Assembly: GCA_034658935.1 (NCBI GenBank)
Contig: JAYEGE010000008.1
Location: 3,400-67,399 of the forward strand
Direction: 5' to 3'
Length of the DNA: 64,000 nucleotides
Source: Patescibacteria group bacterium
GTDB lineage: Bacteria; Patescibacteriota; Minisyncoccia; Phycocordibacterales; JACOZG01
Within the stretch, counting starts at the first letter, position 1; each line of letters begins with the position of its first letter. Shown here one piece after another: positions 3,901 to 58,074 of the stretch. The notes under the pieces were generated by a model. That model saw only the letters and a list, made by a program, of their open reading frames with translations, did no database searches and was not told the origin of the DNA. The position numbers and the translations under genes are program-made.

Positions 3901-5112
3901 ATGAATAATATGTTGAAAAATATAGGTTTAATGGCCTTGGTGGCGGTATTGACTGCTACTATGGTGCTACCTGCGAGTATTGCTGTGGCCAACGATGATT
4001 TGGCGACCAGTATTATTTCGCCAAACAATGCTGCTGTTTTTGAGGTGGGGGAAGACATCACTTTCTCTGGTCAGGCGACTGGCGGTGAGGCTCCTTACGC
4101 TTTTGTTTGGAATTTTGGTGACGGCACCGAGGGTGGCGGCCAGAATTTCACCAGGGCTTACTCTGAGGCAGGCGATATGGTAGTGACCCTTACTGTTACT
4201 GACTTCGCCGATAGTACTTCTGAAGTGAGTCATACGATTACCATCAATGAGGCGCCTGTCAATGCTCCTACCGTTGATTTGAAGGTTAATAATGAGGATG
4301 GTCCTGTAACTATCATCGAAGGCACGGTGGCCACTCTTAGTTGGTCTACCACTGACGCTACTGAGTGTGTTGCTTCTGGTGCCTGGTCTGGTGATAAGTC
4401 TATTGGTGATTCGGAGTCTTTCGATGATCTAGTTGCTGGTACTTATGCCTATATTTTGACCTGTACTGGCTTTGGCGGTTTGGCTAATGATTCGGTGACA
4501 GTAAACGTTGAGGAGATTGTTGATCCTACAGATACTACGCCTCCTACAGTGCCGACTATCACCTTCGCCTCTCATAACGAGGGTGAGACCTCAGCTGATA
4601 CTACTGCCAAGATTTCTTGGACCGAGTCTGCAGATGAGGGTTCTGGTTTAGCCGGCTACTCCTTCCTCTGGGATCATGGTTCTGACACTGCTCCTGATAG
4701 TACTATTGATTCTACTATTACCACTTATACTCAAGCTCTCGGTAATGGCACTTGGTACTTTCATATTGTCGCTCTCGACAATGCGGGCAATGTGTCTAGT
4801 CCGGTAACTCATTACGGTCCGATTACCATTGAGGTCGGGGATGTATTGCCGCCAGTGATCAGTAATATTCGAGTAACCGATATTACCCAGACTGGTGCCA
4901 CTATCCGCTGGGATACCGACAAGCCAGCTAATAGCCGGGTGATCTACGATACAGTTTCTCACTCAGACATCAGTGGCGAGTCCGAGCCTAATTTCGGTTA
5001 TGCTTTTTCGAGTGAGACCCTCAACGAGGACCCTCTTGTGACTGAGCATGCTGTAACTTTGACTGGCTTGACTGCTGATACCCAGTACTTCTTCCGCGTC
5101 TTATCTCGCTGA
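3901..5112 (+). CDS. secreted PKD-domain / fibronectin-III-like repeat protein
   Basis: Signal peptide. Canonical PKD motif APYAFVWNFGDGTEGGGQNFTRAYSEAGDMVVTLTVTD. The downstream segment VISNIRVTDITQTGATIRWDTDKPANSRVIYDT is FN3-like. Confidence 0.6.
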   Translation: MNNMLKNIGLMALVAVLTATMVLPASIAVANDDLATSIISPNNAAVFEVGEDITFSGQATGGEAPYAFVWNFGDGTEGGGQNFTRAYSEAGDMVVTLTVTDFADSTSEVSHTITINEAPVNAPTVDLKVNNEDGPVTIIEGTVATLSWSTTDATECVASGAWSGDKSIGDSESFDDLVAGTYAYILTCTGFGGLANDSVTVNVEEIVDPTDTTPPTVPTITFASHNEGETSADTTAKISWTESADEGSGLAGYSFLWDHGSDTAPDSTIDSTITTYTQALGNGTWYFHIVALDNAGNVSSPVTHYGPITIEVGDVLPPVISNIRVTDITQTGATIRWDTDKPANSRVIYDTVSHSDISGESEPNFGYAFSSETLNEDPLVTEHAVTLTGLTADTQYFFRVLSR

Positions 5113-12453: not shown

Positions 12454-12491
12454 GGCCCCACGAGAACTTGTTCTCGTGGGGCCCTTTTTTT
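12454..12491 (+). terminator. rho-independent terminator (ggccccacgagaa / ttctcgtggggcc followed by T8)
   Basis: 13-bp hairpin followed by TTTTTTTG. Confidence 0.7.
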
Positions 12492-12505
12492 GTTATCCTT
12501 TGTGC

Positions 12506-13477
12506 ATGGAAGAAACGATTCTCAATTTCGCCGAACAATTCAAATGGGAGCCAGAAATAAATAATAGTGAATCACTTGGAGGAAGAACCTCCAAGTGGAT
12601 AGTTTGTGGGATGGGCGGTTCTCATCTGGCCGCAGGGCTGATGAGAGTCCATAATCCCCGGCTCGACTTATTGATTCATCGTGATTATGGTCTGCCCCGT
12701 GTACCCGATTATTTTCTCGAAGGCAGTTTAATTATTCTCAGCTCCTATTCTGGTAATACCGAAGAGATTTTAGATGCTGGTAAGGTGGCCCTAGAGCGGG
12801 GCTTGAATTTGGCGGTCATAAGTACTGATGGGGCATTACTTGAATTTGCTGAAGCTAATCAGTTGCCCTATGTTCAATCGCCAAGTTCTGACAAGCTCCA
12901 GCCGCGCATGGCCCTAGGCTATAGCTTAAAAGCGATGGCGAAATTAATTGGTAATGACGACATCTCGGTTCAGTTGAGTGCGTTGGCTGATACTCTTGAG
13001 CCGGCAGAATTACGACCGGCAGGGGAGAAGCTAGCCGAGCAGATTAAGGGTAAGATTCCCCTCTTTTATTCCTCTGTTGCCAACCTGCCCCTGGCTTATA
13101 ATTGGAAGATCAAATTCAATGAGACGGCTAAGGCGCCAGCTTTCTACAATGTTCTGCCAGAGGCGAACCATAATGAGATGGCTGGTTTCAATGGTGTTCT
13201 CGCCCAGCAGGATTTAAATCAGAAATTCTTTACTCTTTTTCTTACTGATCCCAATGACGAGCTACGCCTCGCTAAACGCTTTCAAGTCTTGGCTGAGATG
13301 TATCGAGATTGGGGGGTATCAACAGAAGAAGTGCCCCTATCGGGGGGCACTTCTTGGCAACGCATCTTTAACTCCTTAGTCTTAGCTGACTGGGCCGCCT
13401 ACCATCTGGCCACCTTGAATGGTGATGATCCAGAAGCGGTACCAATGATCGAAGAGTTCAAGAAATTAATTGGCTGA
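12506..13477 (+). CDS. bifunctional phosphoglucose/phosphomannose isomerase (SIS-domain, archaeal-type PGI/PMI)
   Basis: WIVCGMGGSHLAAGL (SIS motif) and SSYSGNTEEIL (the SxSGNTxE signature of the PGI/PMI family). Start placed at MEETILNF because the GTG at 12476 lies inside the terminator hairpin. Confidence 0.75.
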   Translation: MEETILNFAEQFKWEPEINNSESLGGRTSKWIVCGMGGSHLAAGLMRVHNPRLDLLIHRDYGLPRVPDYFLEGSLIILSSYSGNTEEILDAGKVALERGLNLAVISTDGALLEFAEANQLPYVQSPSSDKLQPRMALGYSLKAMAKLIGNDDISVQLSALADTLEPAELRPAGEKLAEQIKGKIPLFYSSVANLPLAYNWKIKFNETAKAPAFYNVLPEANHNEMAGFNGVLAQQDLNQKFFTLFLTDPNDELRLAKRFQVLAEMYRDWGVSTEEVPLSGGTSWQRIFNSLVLADWAAYHLATLNGDDPEAVPMIEEFKKLIG

Positions 13478-20477: not shown

Positions 20478-20852
20478 AGGTTAGTCCCGCCTCTTCGGCG
20501 TACCCATACGTTTTCTACTGCTTCGATAGGGTGGCACTCAGTTACCTACGGCGATGGCCTCTTTGTAGCGGTGGCATATGATGGCACCAATAGCGCGATG
20601 ACTTCACCTGACGGCATTACTTGGACAGCTCGTGCGACCGCGGAAGTAAATTTTTGGTACAGTGTTACCTACGGCAATGGCACCTTCGTGGCAACGGCTG
20701 GTTCTGGCACCAACCGTGTCATGACCTCAGGAAAAGCCGATCTCTACGACAATCCACACGATAATATCTACCAAGGTGGTATGTCCATCATGGGCGGTAA
20801 CGTCGGCATGGGAACAACCACTGACATTCCACGAGGCTCAACCTCGTGGTAA
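20478..20852 (+). pseudogene. 5'-truncated fragment of a repeat protein (WxSVTYGNGxFVA tandem repeats)
   Basis: The open frame starts right after a stop, with no ATG or RBS. It contains GWHSVTYGDGLFVAVAYDG...ITWTARATAEVNFWYSVTYGNGTFVATAGSG. The ORF track gives it a GTG start at 20571. It sits between tRNA-Gly and the IS-like element. Confidence 0.4.
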
Positions 20853-21583
20853 GATAGGGTTATGTCTAGGCAGATTGAGTTCTCGGTTGACGAATTTTAT
20901 CATCTCTATAATCGCGGTAATGATAAACGCGATATTTTTTTAAGCTCGGCCGACAGGCGTCGCTTTACTGCTTTATTATATCTCTCCAACTCTTGCCACT
21001 CCTTCCACTTCGAGGAACTAAAAAATGCCCCATTTGATTTTGATCGTGGGGCGGCTCTGGTCGATATCGGGGCCTATTGTTTAATGACCAACCATTACCA
21101 CTTGTTAGTCCGAGAACGTCAAGAAAATGGTATCAGTCAATTTATGCATCGTCTGTCCACTGGCTACACCATGTATTTTAACAAGAGGTGGCAACGTCGC
21201 GGTTCGTTATTCGAAGGTCGTTTCCGCGCCAACCATGCCGGTGAGGACAGGTACCTTCATTATTTATTTGCCTATATTCATCTTAATCCGGTCAAAATGA
21301 TTCAAGCGGATTGGCGGGTGATTGGTTTGAAAGACAAAGCATCGGCCAAAGATTTTCTCGGCCAATATTTATACTCGAGTTATCAAGATTGTCTTGGTTT
21401 GAAGCGTGAGAGTGGCAAACTGCTTGCTCGAGAGGCTTTTCCTGACTATTTCTCCGAATCGAATGAGTTTGATAGTTTTTTATCTGATTGGTTGAATTAC
21501 CATGACCACGAGGTTGAGCCTCGTGGGGAGAGGGGGCTAAAGTGACTTGACCTTTTAAGATTCCACGAGGCTCAACCTCGTGG
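20829..21583 (+). mobile_element. IS200/IS605-like mini-element 1 (Y1/HUH transposase gene bounded by palindrome ccacgagg-ctcaa-cctcgtgg)
   Basis: Identical hairpins at 20829-20849 and 21563-21583, both within the direct repeat attccacgaggctcaacctcgtggt(a/t)aag. An inverted copy lies at 21506-21526. Total length 755 bp. Confidence 0.65.
20862..21545 (+). CDS. Y1 HUH transposase (IS200-like / RAYT-like)
   Basis: CLMTNHYHLLV (HUH motif) and YLFAYIHLNPVK (catalytic Tyr motif). Length 227 aa. Paralogous to 43120.. and 57321.. Confidence 0.7.
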   Translation: MSRQIEFSVDEFYHLYNRGNDKRDIFLSSADRRRFTALLYLSNSCHSFHFEELKNAPFDFDRGAALVDIGAYCLMTNHYHLLVRERQENGISQFMHRLSTGYTMYFNKRWQRRGSLFEGRFRANHAGEDRYLHYLFAYIHLNPVKMIQADWRVIGLKDKASAKDFLGQYLYSSYQDCLGLKRESGKLLAREAFPDYFSESNEFDSFLSDWLNYHDHEVEPRGERGLK

Positions 21584-39106: not shown

Positions 39107-39361
39107 GTGGTCGCAACAACAGGCGAAGATGCTGGGATCTTAGTAAAACAGCTTAAAGAAATGGGATTTGAGGGCTTGATAATCGGCAACCCAGCCCTCG
39201 GCCTCGAGGAGTTCTTGGAGATAGCAAGGGATTATCTATACGGAGTCGAAAATTACCCGGGCGTTGGAGGCCTAACAACCTTCGATGAAAATGGAGATGT
39301 TGTTAAACCAATCATGCTGAAAACGATAAAGGACGGGGAAATAATGCCGTACGAGGAATAG
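39107..39361 (+). pseudogene. C-terminal fragment of a periplasmic substrate-binding protein (LivK-like)
   Basis: Only 84 aa, with GLTTFDENGDVVKPIMLKTIKDG typical of branched-chain amino-acid SBP C-termini. No N-terminal domain is present. Confidence 0.35.
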
Positions 39362-39388
39362 AAAAGCCAGGCAAAACCTGGCTTTTTT
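39362..39388 (+). terminator. rho-independent terminator (agccagg-caaaa-cctggct followed by T6)
   Basis: Hairpin followed by TTTTTT. Confidence 0.65.
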
Positions 39389-39486: not shown

Positions 39487-39591
39487 CACTACGCTGAAAC
39501 TACGCGGGGCAAGCCCTAAGTAGACAACATGTAGACGCAAATAATAACATTTTTTGTCAAAAAAGTAAAAAGATGGTAGATTGATCGCACT

Positions 39592-39676
39592 GGAGGCGTG
39601 GCAGAGTGGTCTATCGCGCCGCACTCGAAATGCGGTTGGGAGCAATCCCTCGGGGGTTCGAATCCTCCCGCCTCCG
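39592..39676 (+). tRNA. tRNA-Ser (anticodon CGA), long variable arm
   Basis: ggaggcg...ccgcaCTCGAAAtgcgg...long variable arm...gggggttcgaatcctcc-cgcctcc-g. Confidence 0.75.
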
Positions 39677-39720
39677 TCCTCGCCACGACGTGGTTTTAAC
39701 GAAGTCGAGACGAGTCATTG

Positions 39721-39745
39721 TCAAGGTCGGACCTTGCCACGGGCG
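39721..39745. repeat. solitary degenerate copy of the element-3 terminal palindrome (tgtcaaggtcggaccttgccacg)
   Basis: Matches cactgtcaaggtc(c/g)gaccttgacagtg of 57229-57255 and 57996-58022, with a mutated 3' arm. Confidence 0.55.
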
Positions 39746-43071: not shown

Positions 43072-43825
43072 TGTGCAACACTTAGTGTTGCACAAATGAG
43101 CTGAGCTTACTAAACTGTAGTGGATATGCGTCGGATCAAAATCAGTCCAGGAGAATGTTACCATCTTTATAATAGAGGCAATAATAAGCAGAACATATTC
43201 CGTGATAATCGTGATCGAGCCCGCCTCCTCTTCCTTTTGATAGGTTTGCAATCCGAACTATCTTTCAAAAATATCAGTCGATTAGTTTCAGCTTTAACTA
43301 AAAGACCAAAACTTATCTTGAATGCTCGAGTTGTCTCTGAGGTTAGTGCAGCTCGTTACGTTGATCTAATTAGTTTTGTCTTAATGCCCAACCATTTTCA
43401 TTTAATTGTTTTTGAACGCAAAGAAGGTGGTATTGCTAAATACATGCAACGAGCGCTCAACGCCTATACAAAATATTTTAATACTCGGTATAAAAAAATG
43501 GGCATGTATTTGGGGGGACATACCAAGCCGTTCATATCGAAGACAATGATCAGCTTCTTTATGCTTCTGCCTATCTCCACAGAAATGCTCACCAATTACC
43601 AGTTTGGACTGGTCGCTCGGCGGAGTATCCTTGGTCAAGTTATAGTGATTACGTCGGAAATAATCGGTGGGGGGAGCTTTTAAACCGGCGAATGATTATG
43701 GAACAATTTGTCGACGGTAACGAATACCGACAGTGGGTTGAGACCAGTAGTGCCAAGGACCAAGATTGGGAATTTCAAGAGGGGAACTAAATTGTGCAAC
43801 ACTGTGCAACACTTAGTGTTGCACA
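43072..43825 (+). mobile_element. IS200/IS605-like mini-element 2 (palindrome tgtgcaacac-tta-gtgttgcaca at both ends)
   Basis: Hairpins at 43072-43094 and 43803-43825, plus an extra half-copy at 43793-43802. Total length 754 bp. Confidence 0.65.
43120..43790 (+). pseudogene. Y1 HUH transposase paralog, frameshifted
   Basis: The N-terminal part (CYHLYNRGNNKQNIF...LMPNHFHLIV) is in one frame. The C-terminal part (...LLYASAYLHRNAHQLPVWTGRSAEYPWSSY...) is in another. The switch falls at the A7/G6 homopolymers around 43500-43520. Confidence 0.6.
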
Positions 43826-53700: not shown

Positions 53701-54399
53701 ATGTTTGACAAAACGCTCCGATGGCCATTGGGGGGTTTTGTTTTGGCTTCAGATTTGCTAAAATATAGGCATATGGTGATTAATCACTATGGCTTAGGGA
53801 TGATTAAAATCCAGCAAGGGGAGCTGGCAGTTGCTTTTAATCCGATTGATGAAGTGCCCAAGGGGCGCAACGATATCAAGGTGGTAAATTTTGGCGCTGA
53901 CATTGCCCTAGTGAGTCTCAACCAGCCTGGCTATAACGGAGCCGCTCGAGTGGCTCGTGGAGACCGCGCCCTTTTCTTAGTTAACAGTCCAGGCGAGTAT
54001 GAAGTTGGCGGCACTTTCATCCGGGGTTTGCCAACGGCCGGCCCAGAGGGTCAGAACAATACCATTTACCTATTAACGATTGACCAGATCCGCCTTGTTC
54101 ATTTGGGGGCCCTGGTTGACCCTAAATTACCAGATGACGTCACTGAGAAATTAGGCAGTGTAGATGTTCTCTTTGTGCCGGTCGGCAATGGTTCTCTTTT
54201 GAATCCCAAGCAGGCGGCTCAAGTTGTTGCCACCCTAGCTCCTGAGTTGGTGGTCCCGGTAGATTACGACGCCAAAACTCTTCCTATTTTCTTGAAAGAG
54301 ATGGGGGCCGAGAAAGAACAGCCAAATGAGAGTTTAACTCTCAAGCGTAAAGACTTGATCGGTGGATCTACCCGAGTAAATATAATTAAATCTTTTTAA
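53701..54399 (+). CDS. MBL-fold metal-dependent hydrolase-like protein
   Basis: VHLGALVDP...VDVLFVPVGNGSLLNPKQAAQVVATLAPELVVPVDYD resembles the UPF0173 / beta-lactamase-fold family. Confidence 0.5.
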   Translation: MFDKTLRWPLGGFVLASDLLKYRHMVINHYGLGMIKIQQGELAVAFNPIDEVPKGRNDIKVVNFGADIALVSLNQPGYNGAARVARGDRALFLVNSPGEYEVGGTFIRGLPTAGPEGQNNTIYLLTIDQIRLVHLGALVDPKLPDDVTEKLGSVDVLFVPVGNGSLLNPKQAAQVVATLAPELVVPVDYDAKTLPIFLKEMGAEKEQPNESLTLKRKDLIGGSTRVNIIKSF

Positions 54400-54408
54400 T
54401 TTAATAAG

Positions 54409-54693
54409 ATGTCCGCCTTAAATTATCTTGATAATCTTCGAGCTCGACCAGAACGTGAACGGCGACATCTTGCCTGGCTCTTCGCCTCATTAATTACGGC
54501 GTTGATCGTGGGAGTTTGGTTGCTCAATCTTTATCTTACCGGGGCTTGGGGGCTCTCGGCCGGGCAATCTGGAAAAGCAGTAAACGGTACTTCTTGGCGG
54601 CAGACCCAGAGTGTTAGATGGCATAATATCCAGGCCGGCATTGTTGAGGGTTGGCGGGTGATTATTAAACGGGAAGCACCGCCAGCTGAATAA
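54409..54693 (+). CDS. hypothetical small membrane protein
   Basis: One TM helix. Confidence 0.35.
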
Positions 54694-57228: not shown

Positions 57229-58022
57229 CACTGTCAAGGTCCGACCTTGACAGTGAAGTTATCCCCCTAAAACAGGGGGTATATCTTTGGCAAGGTCCGA
57301 CCTTGGGGTAGAATTGACCAATGACTAGGAGGTTTAAGTTTGCTCCTGGAGAGTATTACCATATTTATAATCGAGGCAATGATCGCCGCAGTATTTTCCT
57401 ATCTGGCAAAGACCGTGATCGCTTTCTCGCTCTGCTTTACGTTTGCAATAGTGGCGAGGTTCTCCATCTGAGTGATTACCCCCAAACCTCCCTGCTGAAA
57501 TTGCTGAGTCTGCCTAGGTCTTCAGTATTGGCAGATATCGGTGCCTATTGTTTGATGCCAAACCATTTCCACTTATTGGTACGGGAGAACGAGGAGGGTG
57601 GCATTAGCCGCTTGATGCAGAAATTACTGACTGCTTACACCATGTATTTTAATCGTAAGCATCAACACACCGGCTCTTTGTTTGAGGGTCGCTTTCGAGC
57701 CAGACACGTTAGCGACGATCGACATTTGCAGTATCTCTTCGCCTATATTCATCTCAATCCTGTTAAGGTTAGAGACCCTGACAATTGGGAGAAAAAAACT
57801 ATTCTCGATACGGATGAAGCGGTACGTTTTTTGAATACCTACCCGTACTCTAGTTTTCTCGATTATCTCGGTCGGAATAGGGGAGAGGGGGCAATCATAA
57901 ACCCGTCGGCTTTCCCAGAGTATTTTTCGGTGCCGTCTGATTTCTCCGATTTTGTACAGGATTGGATGAGTTTTGACGAAGAGGAGGATCTCACCACTGT
58001 CAAGGTCGGACCTTGACAGTGA
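57229..58022 (+). mobile_element. IS200/IS605-like mini-element 3 (palindrome cactgtcaaggtc-c/g-gaccttgacagtg at both ends)
   Basis: Hairpins at 57229-57255 and 57996-58022 lie within 40-bp direct repeats. An extra partial hairpin is at 57291-57305. Total length 794 bp. Confidence 0.65.
57321..58016 (+). CDS. Y1 HUH transposase (IS200-like / RAYT-like)
   Basis: CLMPNHFHLLV (HUH motif) and YLFAYIHLNPVK (Tyr motif). Length 231 aa. About 60% similar to the 20862 copy. Confidence 0.7.
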   Translation: MTRRFKFAPGEYYHIYNRGNDRRSIFLSGKDRDRFLALLYVCNSGEVLHLSDYPQTSLLKLLSLPRSSVLADIGAYCLMPNHFHLLVRENEEGGISRLMQKLLTAYTMYFNRKHQHTGSLFEGRFRARHVSDDRHLQYLFAYIHLNPVKVRDPDNWEKKTILDTDEAVRFLNTYPYSSFLDYLGRNRGEGAIINPSAFPEYFSVPSDFSDFVQDWMSFDEEEDLTTVKVGP

Positions 58023-58074
58023 ATAATCCCCAGAGGGCGGCTTTGTTTTAAGATAAAAGAGGTATAATTGAATT

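Follow-up and report, generated by a model that had tools for sequence, protein, structure and literature searches.

The unit that we call E3, one of three related units in the 64-kb stretch of Patescibacteria DNA analysed here (the window, in what follows), is probably of the TIRtron/REPtron type: a gene for a RAYT/TIRYT-class Y1 (HUH) single-stranded DNA endonuclease, set between two cognate hairpins. In behavior it resembles a RAYT/TIRYT gene of a REPtron or TIRtron, not an insertion sequence (IS) of the IS200/IS605 type, and its hairpin–gene–hairpin layout is common in CPR/Patescibacteria.

The E3 locus

The features of E3 are these:

57229..57255, no strand assigned: left (distal) full hairpin, CACTGTCAAGGTC-C-GACCTTGACAGTG, with apex AGG-N5-CCT
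57263..57279, + strand: terminator-like stem-loop, CCCCCTAAAACAGGGGG and then a T-rich tail, from a consensus scan only
57287..57314, + strand: promoter-like site, TTGGCA, 16-nt spacer, TAGAAT (10/12 matches)
57291..57305, no strand assigned: proximal partial hairpin, CAAGGTCCGACCTTG, with a 7-bp stem, its centre 23 nt before the ATG
57321..58016, + strand: intact gene for a Y1 HUH endonuclease of the RAYT/TIRYT class, 231 aa, assigned from Pfam, motifs and fold
57995..58021, no strand assigned: right full hairpin, the palindrome of the left hairpin but with a central G

The open reading frame (ORF), 57321-58016, is uninterrupted, and two exact 27-nt perfect palindromes flank it, at 57229-57255 and 57995-58021. 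Zero matches to this palindrome are expected by chance, even at three mismatches, and as single-stranded DNA each full copy folds with −12.7 kcal/mol (z about −6 to −7; −6.2 for the left one). The initial annotation thus read E3 correctly as a palindrome-bounded unit with an intact transposase gene of 231 codons. It was less exact about the ends, which it described as 40-bp direct repeats. There is a repeat, but of about 31 nt—the palindrome and 2–3 nt on each side—and the ends beyond that cannot be aligned; nor is it direct, for, to judge by the base at their centers (C in one, G in the other), the copies are mutually inverted. Because they differ only at that base, the orientation of the hairpin is nearly symmetric.

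The right hairpin encodes the final residues of the protein (..TVKVGP) and its TGA stop codon, at 58014-58016. Homologs end in VKVGP, VKVKP or VKARP, and the overlap between hairpin and gene end is conserved among them. A 13-nt core, AAGGTCSGACCTT, occurs four times in the window (39723, 57236, 57292 and 58002), where 0.07 occurrences are expected by chance and four were reached in none of 100 shuffles. Two copies noticed earlier, a partial extra hairpin inside the left end (57291-57305) and a solitary one at 39721, are therefore real. Folded on its own, the partial hairpin is weak (−4.6 kcal/mol, z −1.8); its position is kept in two orthologs, L028 and L031. An Rfam scan of the whole window returned six tRNAs only, so the hairpins are not explained by any known RNA family. 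The E3 locus was also assembled independently in a Logan run.

Paralogous units and a solitary hairpin

Elsewhere in the window lie two further units and one hairpin that stands by itself:

20829..21583, + strand: paralogous unit E1, copies of hairpin CCACGAGGCTCAACCTCGTGG and ORF 20862-21545
39721..39745, no strand assigned: solitary, decayed hairpin of the E3 type, CATTGTCAAGGTCGGACCTTGCCACGG, intergenic, with the genome-specific GTC.GAC core
43072..43825, + strand: paralogous unit E2, a pair of TGTGCAACACTTAGTGTTGCACA hairpins and the frameshifted ORF 43126-43790

The E1 ORF encodes 227 aa that are 50% identical to the E3 protein; copies of CCACGAGGCTCAACCTCGTGG lie at 20829-20849, at 21506-21526 (inverted, within the end of the ORF) and at 21563-21583. 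The E2 ORF, about 40% identical to E3, has one frameshift (A7 run, 43492-43498), and its hairpin is found at 43072-43094 and 43803-43825, with a half copy at 43792-43801. The earlier description of three units, each with its own palindrome and a diverged but homologous transposase, fits what is seen. A fourth tblastn match, at 54292-54492 (28%, E 0.22), was rejected as chance; it covers the last part of a Lactamase_B_3 ORF together with the first part of the ORF that follows.

The solitary hairpin begins 42 nt downstream of tRNA-Ser(cga), at 39591-39679. It had been called a degenerate copy, and rightly so: the core at 39723 is above chance, the outer stem carries three mismatches, and the fold, at −4.8 kcal/mol, is no better than those of shuffled sequences.

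The E3 protein

The structural relatives of the protein came from a fold search; searches of the PDB by sequence gave marginal matches only. The AlphaFold model (pLDDT 90.8) has as its top fold match 4ER8, the TnpA-REP/RAYT enzyme of Escherichia coli with a REP hairpin (E 3.6e-7), which ranks ahead of the TnpA proteins of ISDra2 and IS608; Foldseek gives probability 1.00 to 4ER8, 2XO6, 2XM3, 2A6M and 2VJV alike. At the level of sequence, the protein matches Pfam PF01797 (Y1_Tnp) with 38.7 bits, above the curated cutoff of 23. Its best NCBIfam match is the RAYT model NF047646, to which the three paralogs of the window score 51.1 (E3), 37.5 and 22 bits, all under the cutoff of 80. Pfam at E ≤ 0.01 finds nothing besides Y1_Tnp, and no HTH-like tail (Bac_DnaA_C, HTH_23, HTH_28); the tail is predicted to be helical in the AlphaFold model.

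The motifs are informative. The protein has the HuH motif N81-H82-F83-H84, the catalytic tyrosine motif Y142-I-H-L-N-P147, and a further F-E motif, LFEGRF; the HuH and tyrosine-motif residues, Y142, N146 and P147 included, are invariant across 72 homologs. In Table 1 of PMC6006769, TnpA-Y1 subclass 1.1, that of IS200/IS605, has the Y motif Y---Q and the HuH motif DH[VI]H, which are not the NHFH and YIHLNP of E3. Subclass 2.1 (Bertels group 1) has NH[YF]H, F/W-E/Q and Y[IV]HLNP in about 238 aa (PMC6006769), and the E3 protein fits it by length and by its motifs NHFH, F-E and YIHLNP, a placement that goes by motifs only. Judged in this way, the protein is a class 2 (RAYT/TIRYT) Y1 HUH enzyme rather than IS200 proper. 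The label ‘IS200/IS605-like’, given earlier, is thus right as to superfamily—Y1 HUH, by PF01797 and by fold—but not as to the class-2 Y---NP motif or the behavior of the unit, which is not that of an IS. A search of a phage collection gave a single partial match, and hence no phage link for E3.

Hairpins and proteins change together

Seventy-four homolog loci were compared. In 60 of them (81%), a hairpin peculiar to the locus stands both ahead of the ATG and at the stop codon, scored as an identical word of 12 nt or more shared by the pre-ATG and stop-codon regions; in control pairs, with the loci permuted, the figure is 7/216 (3%). A stricter rule, which matches perfect inner stems, finds 37 of the 74 loci and under-counts, and it is these 37 that supply the counts of orientation, stop overlap and T-runs given here. 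Relative to the ATG, the 3' end of the upstream hairpin has a median position of −25, and the downstream hairpin lies over the stop codon in 20 of the 37. The gene, then, has one hairpin over its promoter region and a second that runs across its stop codon. The loops follow no single orientation (20 pairs inverted, 12 direct and 5 other, among the 37), so the strand rules are not clean.

The hairpins share a simple design: the stem varies and covaries, and the AGG-N5-CCT apex above it is conserved. Of 56 upstream hairpins, 45 close with the triplet AGG/CCT, as do 48 of 55 downstream ones (about 85%). In the stems, 93% of cells are paired and the covariation score is 0.80, versus 0.17 when shuffled, a statistic that is partly circular since the hairpins were pre-selected for stems of at least 6 bp. 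Protein identity averages 54.6% for pairs of loci with the same apex versus 46.7% for pairs with different apexes, a difference reached in 0 of 1000 permutations.

The hairpins keep their structure while their sequence changes, and all the copies at a locus change together. E3 in the window has AAGGTC.GACCTT. In its orthologs L028 and L031, each of the three to four copies reads AAGGTT.AACCTT; the switch from C:G to T:A was made in every hairpin copy at these loci. A compensatory change made in concert in all copies calls for a copying process. Taken with the bracketing of 60 of 74 loci and with the way apex class tracks protein identity, it bears out the idea, put forward at the start, of hairpins and transposases that co-evolve. 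The same annotation thought such a family unusual for streamlined genomes. For Patescibacteria this is wrong: the family runs to over 7,400 clusters of proteins, nearly all of them from this group, often with several paralogs per genome, and the architecture recurs in dozens of independent assemblies. The limited literature that we searched held nothing relevant on CPR tyrosine transposases or on the pairing of IS200 and palindromes in CPR.

Dispersal of the hairpin

REP-like dispersal of the hairpin, also proposed at the outset, is weak in the window and convincing only in other CPR genomes. Outside its unit, the E3 hairpin has left one decayed solitary copy in 64 kb, and the flanks of 55 homolog loci (332 kb) contain nine extra hairpin copies. 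In some Saccharibacteria, dispersal is clear. Two metagenome-assembled genomes (MAGs) have 14 and 6 copies, with outer stems specific to the genome; the copies lie mostly outside long open frames, one per genome adjoins a Y1 gene, and solitary hairpins far outnumber Y1 genes.

Insertion and inheritance

E3 is located between gyrA and a methyltransferase gene. Orthologs at 68–73% aa identity occupy the identical site, and they are as conserved as the genes beside them: identities in the syntenic orthologs are 73/68/74% for the transposase, 67/67/75% for the methyltransferase and 57/57/62% for the SBP gene. In four more distant relatives, with the same neighborhood, the site is empty: gyrA and the methyltransferase gene are 17–34 bp apart, with no hairpin between them. 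Since these relatives have the site but not the unit, the unit moved as a block at least once, and the view of E3 as a unit that entered its site is borne out. The palindromes came with the gene; that they are a duplicated insertion target, as with ISs that insert into REPs, is ruled out because the empty sites contain no palindrome. Same-site orthologs and empty sites together point to an old block insertion followed by vertical inheritance: E3 entered the 17–34 bp spacer in an ancestor of the lineage, and it has been inherited in place since, under purifying selection.

Might E3 be an autonomous mini-IS of the IS200/IS605 kind, still active, the hairpin–gene–hairpin unit of ~0.8 kb excising and reinserting as single-stranded DNA? 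The Y1 HUH fold, the IS200-like size and subterminal hairpins, the intact ORF, the absence of the unit from the same site in four relatives and the presence of three paralogous units within 64 kb would all suit such an element. We nevertheless think it unlikely. The paralogs share only 40–50% identity and differ in their hairpins, so none in the window is a recent copy of E3; the same-site orthologs, at 68–73% aa identity, are conserved like their neighbors; and one family member, P0063, has a single genomic context in 24 contigs. IS200/IS605 elements use both end hairpins on one strand, as is known from the structures of IS608, whereas here hairpin ends with asymmetric loops, though mixed, are more often inverted, and so on opposite strands, than direct. 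Solitary hairpins, moreover, far outnumber genes in the Saccharibacteria MAGs, and the Y motif is the class-2 Y---NP, whereas IS200 transposases have Y---Q (PMC6006769).

The promoter region and the 3' end

The −10 box of the promoter-like site lies at −12 to −7 from the ATG, the geometry of a leaderless mRNA, and its −35-like hexamer (TTGGCA) is the left arm of the partial hairpin. Family-wide, TANNNT occurs at −12 in 46 of 74 loci and TG at −15/−14, and SD-like words are almost absent. The neighboring methyltransferase gene has leaderless promoter geometry too, so this is a trait of the genome and no sign of special regulation. A clear −35 consensus within the hairpin is present at E3 and is not uniform in the family, and the right-arm CCTTG was dropped as a regular source of the −35 TTG, its position profile being too blurred. 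Our claim goes no further than that the −35 region is covered by the upstream hairpin. The stem-loop at 57263-57279, between the two left hairpins, is a possible terminator of gyrA read-through. The 3' hairpin was considered as a terminator and rejected, a T-run following only 3 of 37 downstream hairpins.

These observations bear on a reading that would confine the palindromes to regulation in cis: an operator at the promoter and an RNA-stabilizing or -terminating stem at the 3' end, with palindromes that are bound as duplex DNA or serve as RNA, with neither cleavage nor copying of DNA, and with solitary copies that are unrelated or mere remnants. In its favor, the upstream copy lies across the promoter region (median −25 for its 3' end; the promoter-like site of E3), the downstream copy takes in the stop codon at 20 of 37 loci, and a perfect palindrome would suit a dimeric binder of duplex DNA. 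This reading seems to us somewhat less likely even than an active IS. The catalytic histidine and tyrosine are invariant throughout the family, the concerted compensatory change in all copies requires copying, and one genome has 14 dispersed copies, with a genome-specific outer stem, away from Y1 genes. It leaves unexplained the non-palindromic inverted repeats found at both positions in non-CPR relatives, and the T-runs, after only 3 of 37 downstream hairpins, tell against the terminating stem. The position of the upstream copy, 5' of a leaderless −10 box, and the scarcity of T-runs count for a role of the hairpins at the level of DNA over one at the level of RNA. Nothing was found in favor of chance or of misassembly as the origin of the pattern (the source genome was assembled from a metagenome), and the idea is negligible given zero matches expected by chance, an independent Logan assembly of the locus, and the same architecture in dozens of independent assemblies.

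Comparison with known systems

The closest known kind for E3 is the TIRtron/REPtron. The TIRtrons of Di Nocera et al. 2013 (PMC3733652) contain TIRYT genes, which are equivalent to TnpA-Y1 subclass 2.1 (Quentin et al. 2018, PMC6006769) and to RAYT group 1 (Bertels et al. 2017, PMC5581495). Like them, E3 has the motifs and length already described (NHFH, LFEGRF and YIHLNP in 231 aa), low copy number with diverged paralogs within the genome, and an inverted repeat pair with one member upstream and the other overlapping or abutting the stop codon. Such pairs are seen in relatives from Sporomusa, Legionella and R. rubrum, and in relatives outside the CPR inverted GGGGTCAG.. repeats stand at both places, as in TIRtrons (PMC3733652); plasmid-borne relatives carry GGGGTCAG. 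TIRtron repeat families are, likewise, moderately abundant, and some of the repeats are self-complementary (PMC3733652); GGGGTCAGACCCC of R. rubrum resembles AAGGTCCGACCTT of E3, and AGGCCTTGCCT, the apex met most often in CPR, is part of the Legionella repeat. There are differences. E3 has a full, perfect hairpin with an AGG-N5-CCT apex and a covarying stem, whereas the motif in the literature is GGGGWSAS, in a linear TIR; the E3 motif AAGGTCCG matches five of its eight positions. The CPR proteins, at 219–240 aa, are without a Pfam HTH tail, and non-CPR relatives have 236–296 aa. Subclass 2.1 was reported to be without REP-like structures (Quentin et al., PMC6006769); CPR genomes lie outside the published surveys, and it is in CPR that the family, with its more than 7,400 clusters, is strongly expanded.

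TnpA-REP of E. coli (RAYT, YafM), the REPtron, and the REP, BIME and REPIN systems (PMC3333891, PMC3479197, PMC8266576; PDB 4ER8) provide the best structural match to the E3 protein. The likeness extends to a class-2 Y1 enzyme that is fixed in place and vertically inherited, to cognate hairpins inverted around the gene and found also as solitary copies or doublets in intergenic DNA, and to a separate hairpin family for each paralog. The defining feature of canonical REPs, a GT[AG]G foot, is absent from the 5' side of all three hairpin types in the window, however, and the conserved CPR element (AGG/CCT) is apical, not basal. CPR hairpins number tens per genome at most, versus hundreds; the E3 protein scores 51 bits against the NCBIfam RAYT cutoff of 80, and its model has an extra helical region of about 80 aa at the C-terminus.

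With IS200, IS608 and ISDra2, the members of the IS200/IS605 family compared, E3 shares the Y1 HUH fold with its HuH motif and single catalytic tyrosine, a unit of about 0.7–0.8 kb with hairpins near both ends, and one past block insertion. It differs in its Y motif (Y---NP, not Y---Q), in its long residence at one site, and in having neither tnpB nor near-identical copies in the 64-kb window, where its paralogs are 50% and about 40% identical. Ends of the E3 type, moreover, are identical perfect palindromes, more often than not on opposite strands, whereas those of the ISs are imperfect LE and RE hairpins on the same strand.

A proposed mechanism

If E3 is a TIRtron/REPtron-type unit, its workings may be sketched by analogy with TnpA-REP and with IS608/ISDra2, from which we infer the binding, the site of cleavage and the copying of hairpins. 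A dimeric enzyme would bind the hairpin in single-stranded DNA, at a replication fork, for example, and would read mainly the AGG/CCT apex. The DNA beside the hairpin would be cut and rejoined by way of Tyr142 and the His82/His84 metal site. Such cleavage might copy hairpins over each other, so that the flanking copies stay matched to the enzyme, and now and then it might seed solitary copies elsewhere, such as that at 39721 here or the 14 in one Saccharibacteria genome. The E3 gene itself would no longer be mobile. More speculatively, the enzyme, bound to the promoter-proximal hairpin, might repress its own leaderless transcript.

Significance

REP/RAYT best exemplifies how a transposase can become a resident enzyme, with a population of DNA hairpins that it maintains itself. 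To our knowledge, studies of REP/RAYT have been almost confined to Proteobacteria and a few other phyla. The present findings would extend its logic to the ultra-small CPR bacteria, in which the family is very large, and in which genomes that have lost most of their non-essential DNA retain several diverged pairs of enzyme and hairpin. With its conserved AGG-N5-CCT apex and free stem, the hairpin is simple in design; this design leads to direct predictions about specificity, and it ties the CPR hairpins to the GGGGWSAS repeats published for the TIRYT group, in which REP-like structures were reported to be lacking. For annotation of CPR genomes, the consequence is that such genes should be kept apart from active insertion sequences.

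We suggest, tentatively, that these may be members of an undescribed, CPR-wide class of hairpin/Y1-endonuclease pairs—several, mutually orthogonal, in a genome of ~1 Mb—that are kept by selection for some host function, self-regulated processing of single-stranded DNA or the structuring of the genome, for example, and are not decaying selfish DNA. If so, the selected pairs of the CPR would offer a minimal and tractable model of REP/RAYT-type domestication.

The E3 gene and its hairpins

E3, a Y1 HUH gene in the window, was described in the initial annotation as an IS200/IS605-like mini-element with 40-bp direct repeats. The sequence matches that description in its intact 231-aa ORF, its bracketing palindromes and its extra core sites, but the repeats extend for only about 31 nt and, judged by their central base (C versus G), are mutually inverted.

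57229-57255: left hairpin, perfect 27-nt palindrome CACTGTCAAGGTC-C-GACCTTGACAGTG
57291-57305: partial hairpin, extra site of the 13-nt core
57321-58016: E3 ORF, intact, 231 aa, between the two palindromes
57995-58021: right hairpin, same palindrome with central base G
39723-39735: solitary core copy, intergenic, 42 nt downstream of tRNA-Ser(cga)

The stop codon (TGA, 58014-58016) falls within the right palindrome. Allowing up to three mismatches, the full palindrome occurs in the window only twice, where chance predicts none, and the 13-nt core, AAGGTCSGACCTT, occurs at four sites against 0.07 expected. Folding as single-stranded DNA gives a strong structure for the full hairpins (-12.7 kcal/mol, z about -6), but not for the partial and solitary copies.

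Protein class and paralogs

The E3 ORF has an exact match in MEA1929689.1, a protein labelled transposase on a 132,795-bp contig of a Patescibacteria (CPR) MAG. Used as a tblastn query, it finds two paralogs in the window; a fourth, weak match was rejected as chance.

20862-21545: E1 ORF, 50% identical to E3, bracketed by hairpin CCACGAGGCTCAACCTCGTGG
43126-43790: E2 ORF, about 40% identical to E3, bracketed by hairpin TGTGCAACACTTAGTGTTGCACA

An inverted copy of the E1 hairpin lies inside the 3' end of its ORF (21506-21526), and a third, direct copy 36 bp downstream (21563-21583); together these two form a REPIN-like inverted doublet. Upstream of E1, a 93-aa ORF (20571-20852) ends within the left hairpin. 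E2 has one frameshift, in an A7 run (43492-43498), and adding one A yields a 221-aa ORF with the Tyr motif YLHRNA; it may be a recent pseudogene, or reflect slippage or an assembly error.

All three paralogs exceed the Pfam cutoff for Y1_Tnp, and the top NCBIfam model for each is the REP-associated tyrosine transposase, at scores (51, 37 and 22 bits) below its cutoff of 80. The AlphaFold model of E3 is confident (pLDDT 90.8), and its top match in the PDB is 4ER8, E. coli TnpA-REP with a bound REP hairpin (E 3.6e-7), followed by the TnpA proteins of ISDra2 and IS608. Across 72 aligned homologs, residues N81, H82 and H84 of the HuH motif and Y142, H144, N146 and P147 of the Tyr motif are invariant. 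Compared with the motifs tabulated by Quentin et al. (PMC6006769), E3, with NHFH, F-E and YIHLNP in about 230 aa, fits class 2, subclass 2.1; IS200 proper is not a fit, its motifs being DH[VI]H and Y---Q. Subclass 2.1 is the same as group 1 of the RAYTs in Bertels et al. (PMC5581495), and Quentin et al. report finding no REP-like sequences for it. Di Nocera et al. (PMC3733652) named the same proteins TIRYTs; their flanking inverted repeats carry GGGGWSAS, and some are self-complementary and some overlap gene ends.

At E <= 1e-5 the family comprises 7,446 protein clusters, the named ones from Patescibacteria, and a pattern scan of JGI metagenomes confirmed at least 574 loci; with a family of this size, the gene is typical of CPR genomes. 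Plasmid-borne homologs of 236-296 aa (25-35% identity) occur outside the CPR in Sporomusa, Legionella and Rhodospirillum rubrum. Their inverted repeats contain GGGGTCAG, one lying 55-118 nt upstream and one at the stop codon, which is the published layout and motif of TIRtrons. E3's AAGGTCCGACCTT has a similar counterpart in the R. rubrum repeat, GGGGTCAGACCCC, and AGGCCTTGCCT, the most frequent CPR apex, is found within the Legionella repeat. Because of these likenesses, the CPR hairpins look like a fully self-complementary TIRYT repeat.

The hairpin bracket across the family

We surveyed 74 complete homolog loci (27-73% protein identity). In 60 of them, the 220 nt preceding the ATG and the surroundings of the stop codon have an identical word of 12 nt or longer in common, and in 50 one of 15 nt or longer; among permuted locus pairs the figure for 12 nt is 7/216. 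The best hairpin with a 5-nt apex has a stem of at least 6 bp in 56/74 upstream regions versus 13/74 ORF interiors. The three pairs that close the apex read AGG/CCT in 45 of 56 hairpins upstream and 48 of 55 downstream (AAG/CTT in four each), and the stem beneath this apex differs at almost all loci. In 45 such hairpins, 93% of cells are paired, with a covariation score of 0.80 versus 0.17 when shuffled, although inner-stem pairing is partly built in by the selection rule; the rule guarantees neither AGG/CCT conservation nor the match between upstream and downstream copies.

Where two loci have an apex in common, their proteins are more alike (mean identity 54.6% versus 46.7% otherwise, reached in 0/1000 permutations), and the lower stem scarcely tracks protein similarity. 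Hairpin turnover is rapid, with an apex shared in just 15 of 61 nearest-neighbour proteins. The loops of the upstream and downstream hairpins are inverted at 20 loci, direct at 12 and otherwise related at five. The median distance from the upstream hairpin's end to the ATG is 25 nt, and in 20/37 loci the downstream hairpin begins ahead of the last base of the stop codon, an overlap that accounts for the recurrent C-termini VKVGP, VKVKP and VKARP. One Parcubacteria locus (L113, 3001-5231) has two Y1_Tnp paralogs, of 224 and 221 aa, either side of ksgA within 2.3 kb, an arrangement that recurs on several contigs from different samples.

Aligned at the ATG, the family has T at -12, A at -11 and T at -7, each at about 0.72; TANNNT at -12 occurs in 46/74 loci, with TG at -15/-14, and Shine-Dalgarno-like words are nearly absent before the ATG at the 74 loci. 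This is the geometry expected of a leaderless transcript. In E3, a scan places a promoter-like site at 57287-57314 (TTGGCA, 16-nt spacer, TAGAAT; ATG at 57321), with the partial hairpin's left arm as its -35-like hexamer. The adjacent methyltransferase gene has TATAAT at 58063-58068, -12 to -7 from its ATG, with no Shine-Dalgarno, and the same pattern recurs in four relatives that lack E3 (L127-L130, around 3980-4000). Leaderless starts therefore look like a trait of these CPR genomes, and the gene-specific feature is the hairpin copy over the promoter region. In that position the upstream copy is not transcribed with its gene, suggesting that it acts at the DNA level.

Dispersed copies

The 19-nt core is found in 26 stretches of other genomes, most of them CPR. 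One Saccharibacteria MAG has 14 copies on nine contigs, all with outer stem GCTGTCAAGG..CCTTGACAGC, and a second has six, with TGCGTCAAGG..CCTTGACGCA.

L003-L027 (CAYQCN01 and CAZTQB01 contigs): Saccharibacteria dispersed copies, GTCAAGGTC-S-GACCTTGAC, outer stem genome-specific

These are mostly intergenic or outside long open frames, and some form inverted doublets (e.g. L010, 2368/2424). Just one copy per genome brackets a Y1 gene, whose protein is 27-35% identical to E3. These dispersed copies make up a REP-like family of low copy number in TM7. The flanks of 55 homolog loci hold nine extra copies in 332 kb. The REP-like dispersal proposed initially is thus real at low copy number; within the window it amounts to just one decayed solitary copy.

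Hairpins of AGG-N5-CCT design number seven in the window, against 0.15 expected. Two of the seven follow.

12573-12597: CACTTGGAGGAAGAACCTCCAAGTG, 10-bp stem, inside a 333-aa ORF (12476-13477), reads ..ESLGGRTSKW..
39362-39386: AAAAGCCAGGCAAAACCTGGCTTTT, followed by more Ts, after ORF 39107-39361

The first could be an in-frame intragenic insertion, as known for REPs, or chance; the second looks like an ordinary intrinsic terminator.

History of the site

Two orthologs, P0002 (73% identity) and P0003 (68%), share the neighbourhood of E3: gyrA, Y1 gene, SAM methyltransferase, SBP, then T4SS pilins. Their hairpins are laid out as in E3, with a full copy, a partial one some 23 nt ahead of the ATG, and a full one over the stop codon. 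At these ortholog loci (L028 and L031) the core is AAGGTT.AACCTT in every copy, whereas in the window it is AAGGTC.GACCTT, a compensatory C:G to T:A change concerted at three or four hairpins. Such a change requires a copying process between hairpins, presumably driven by the enzyme as the obvious candidate. In L028 (317-630) and L031 (989-1400), gyrA is separated from the hairpins by 220-410 bp of extra, lineage-specific DNA with small ORFs of 40-44 aa, which the window lacks. A fourth, divergent hairpin, AGAAGGTCTGACCTCCT, is found in L031.

Among the orthologs the transposase (73/68/74% identity) is conserved like the methyltransferase (67/67/75%) and more than the SBP (57/57/62%). Four more distant relatives have the same neighbourhood (methyltransferase 57-62%, gyrA about 72% identity), with a gyrA-methyltransferase gap of just 17-34 bp and no hairpin in it. 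From these empty sites, the unit entered the spacer a single time, as a block, in the ancestor of the clade of the window, L028 and L031, and has been retained since; loss from the other clade is possible, and would need a precise deletion. One homolog, P0063, is found on 24 contigs in a single genomic context.

Interpretation

E3 is best explained as a unit of the TIRtron/REPtron type, an old block insertion that has become a resident gene, kept by purifying selection, with a product that recognizes the flanking hairpin. It is less likely to be an active IS200-like element, given the lack of recent copies, the stable occupancy of the site, the class 2 motifs and the mostly inverted asymmetric loops. 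A purely regulatory role for the palindromes leaves both the invariant catalytic residues and the dispersed copies unaccounted for.

If the E3 product works like TnpA-REP and the IS608/ISDra2 enzymes, it would recognize the hairpin on single-stranded DNA and cleave by way of Tyr142. The promoter-proximal copy could plausibly serve in autoregulation. Systems of this type are already known; what appears to be new, in the literature searched, is the CPR clade and its abundance in streamlined genomes, together with the CPR hairpin design and the way its copies cover promoter region and stop codon.
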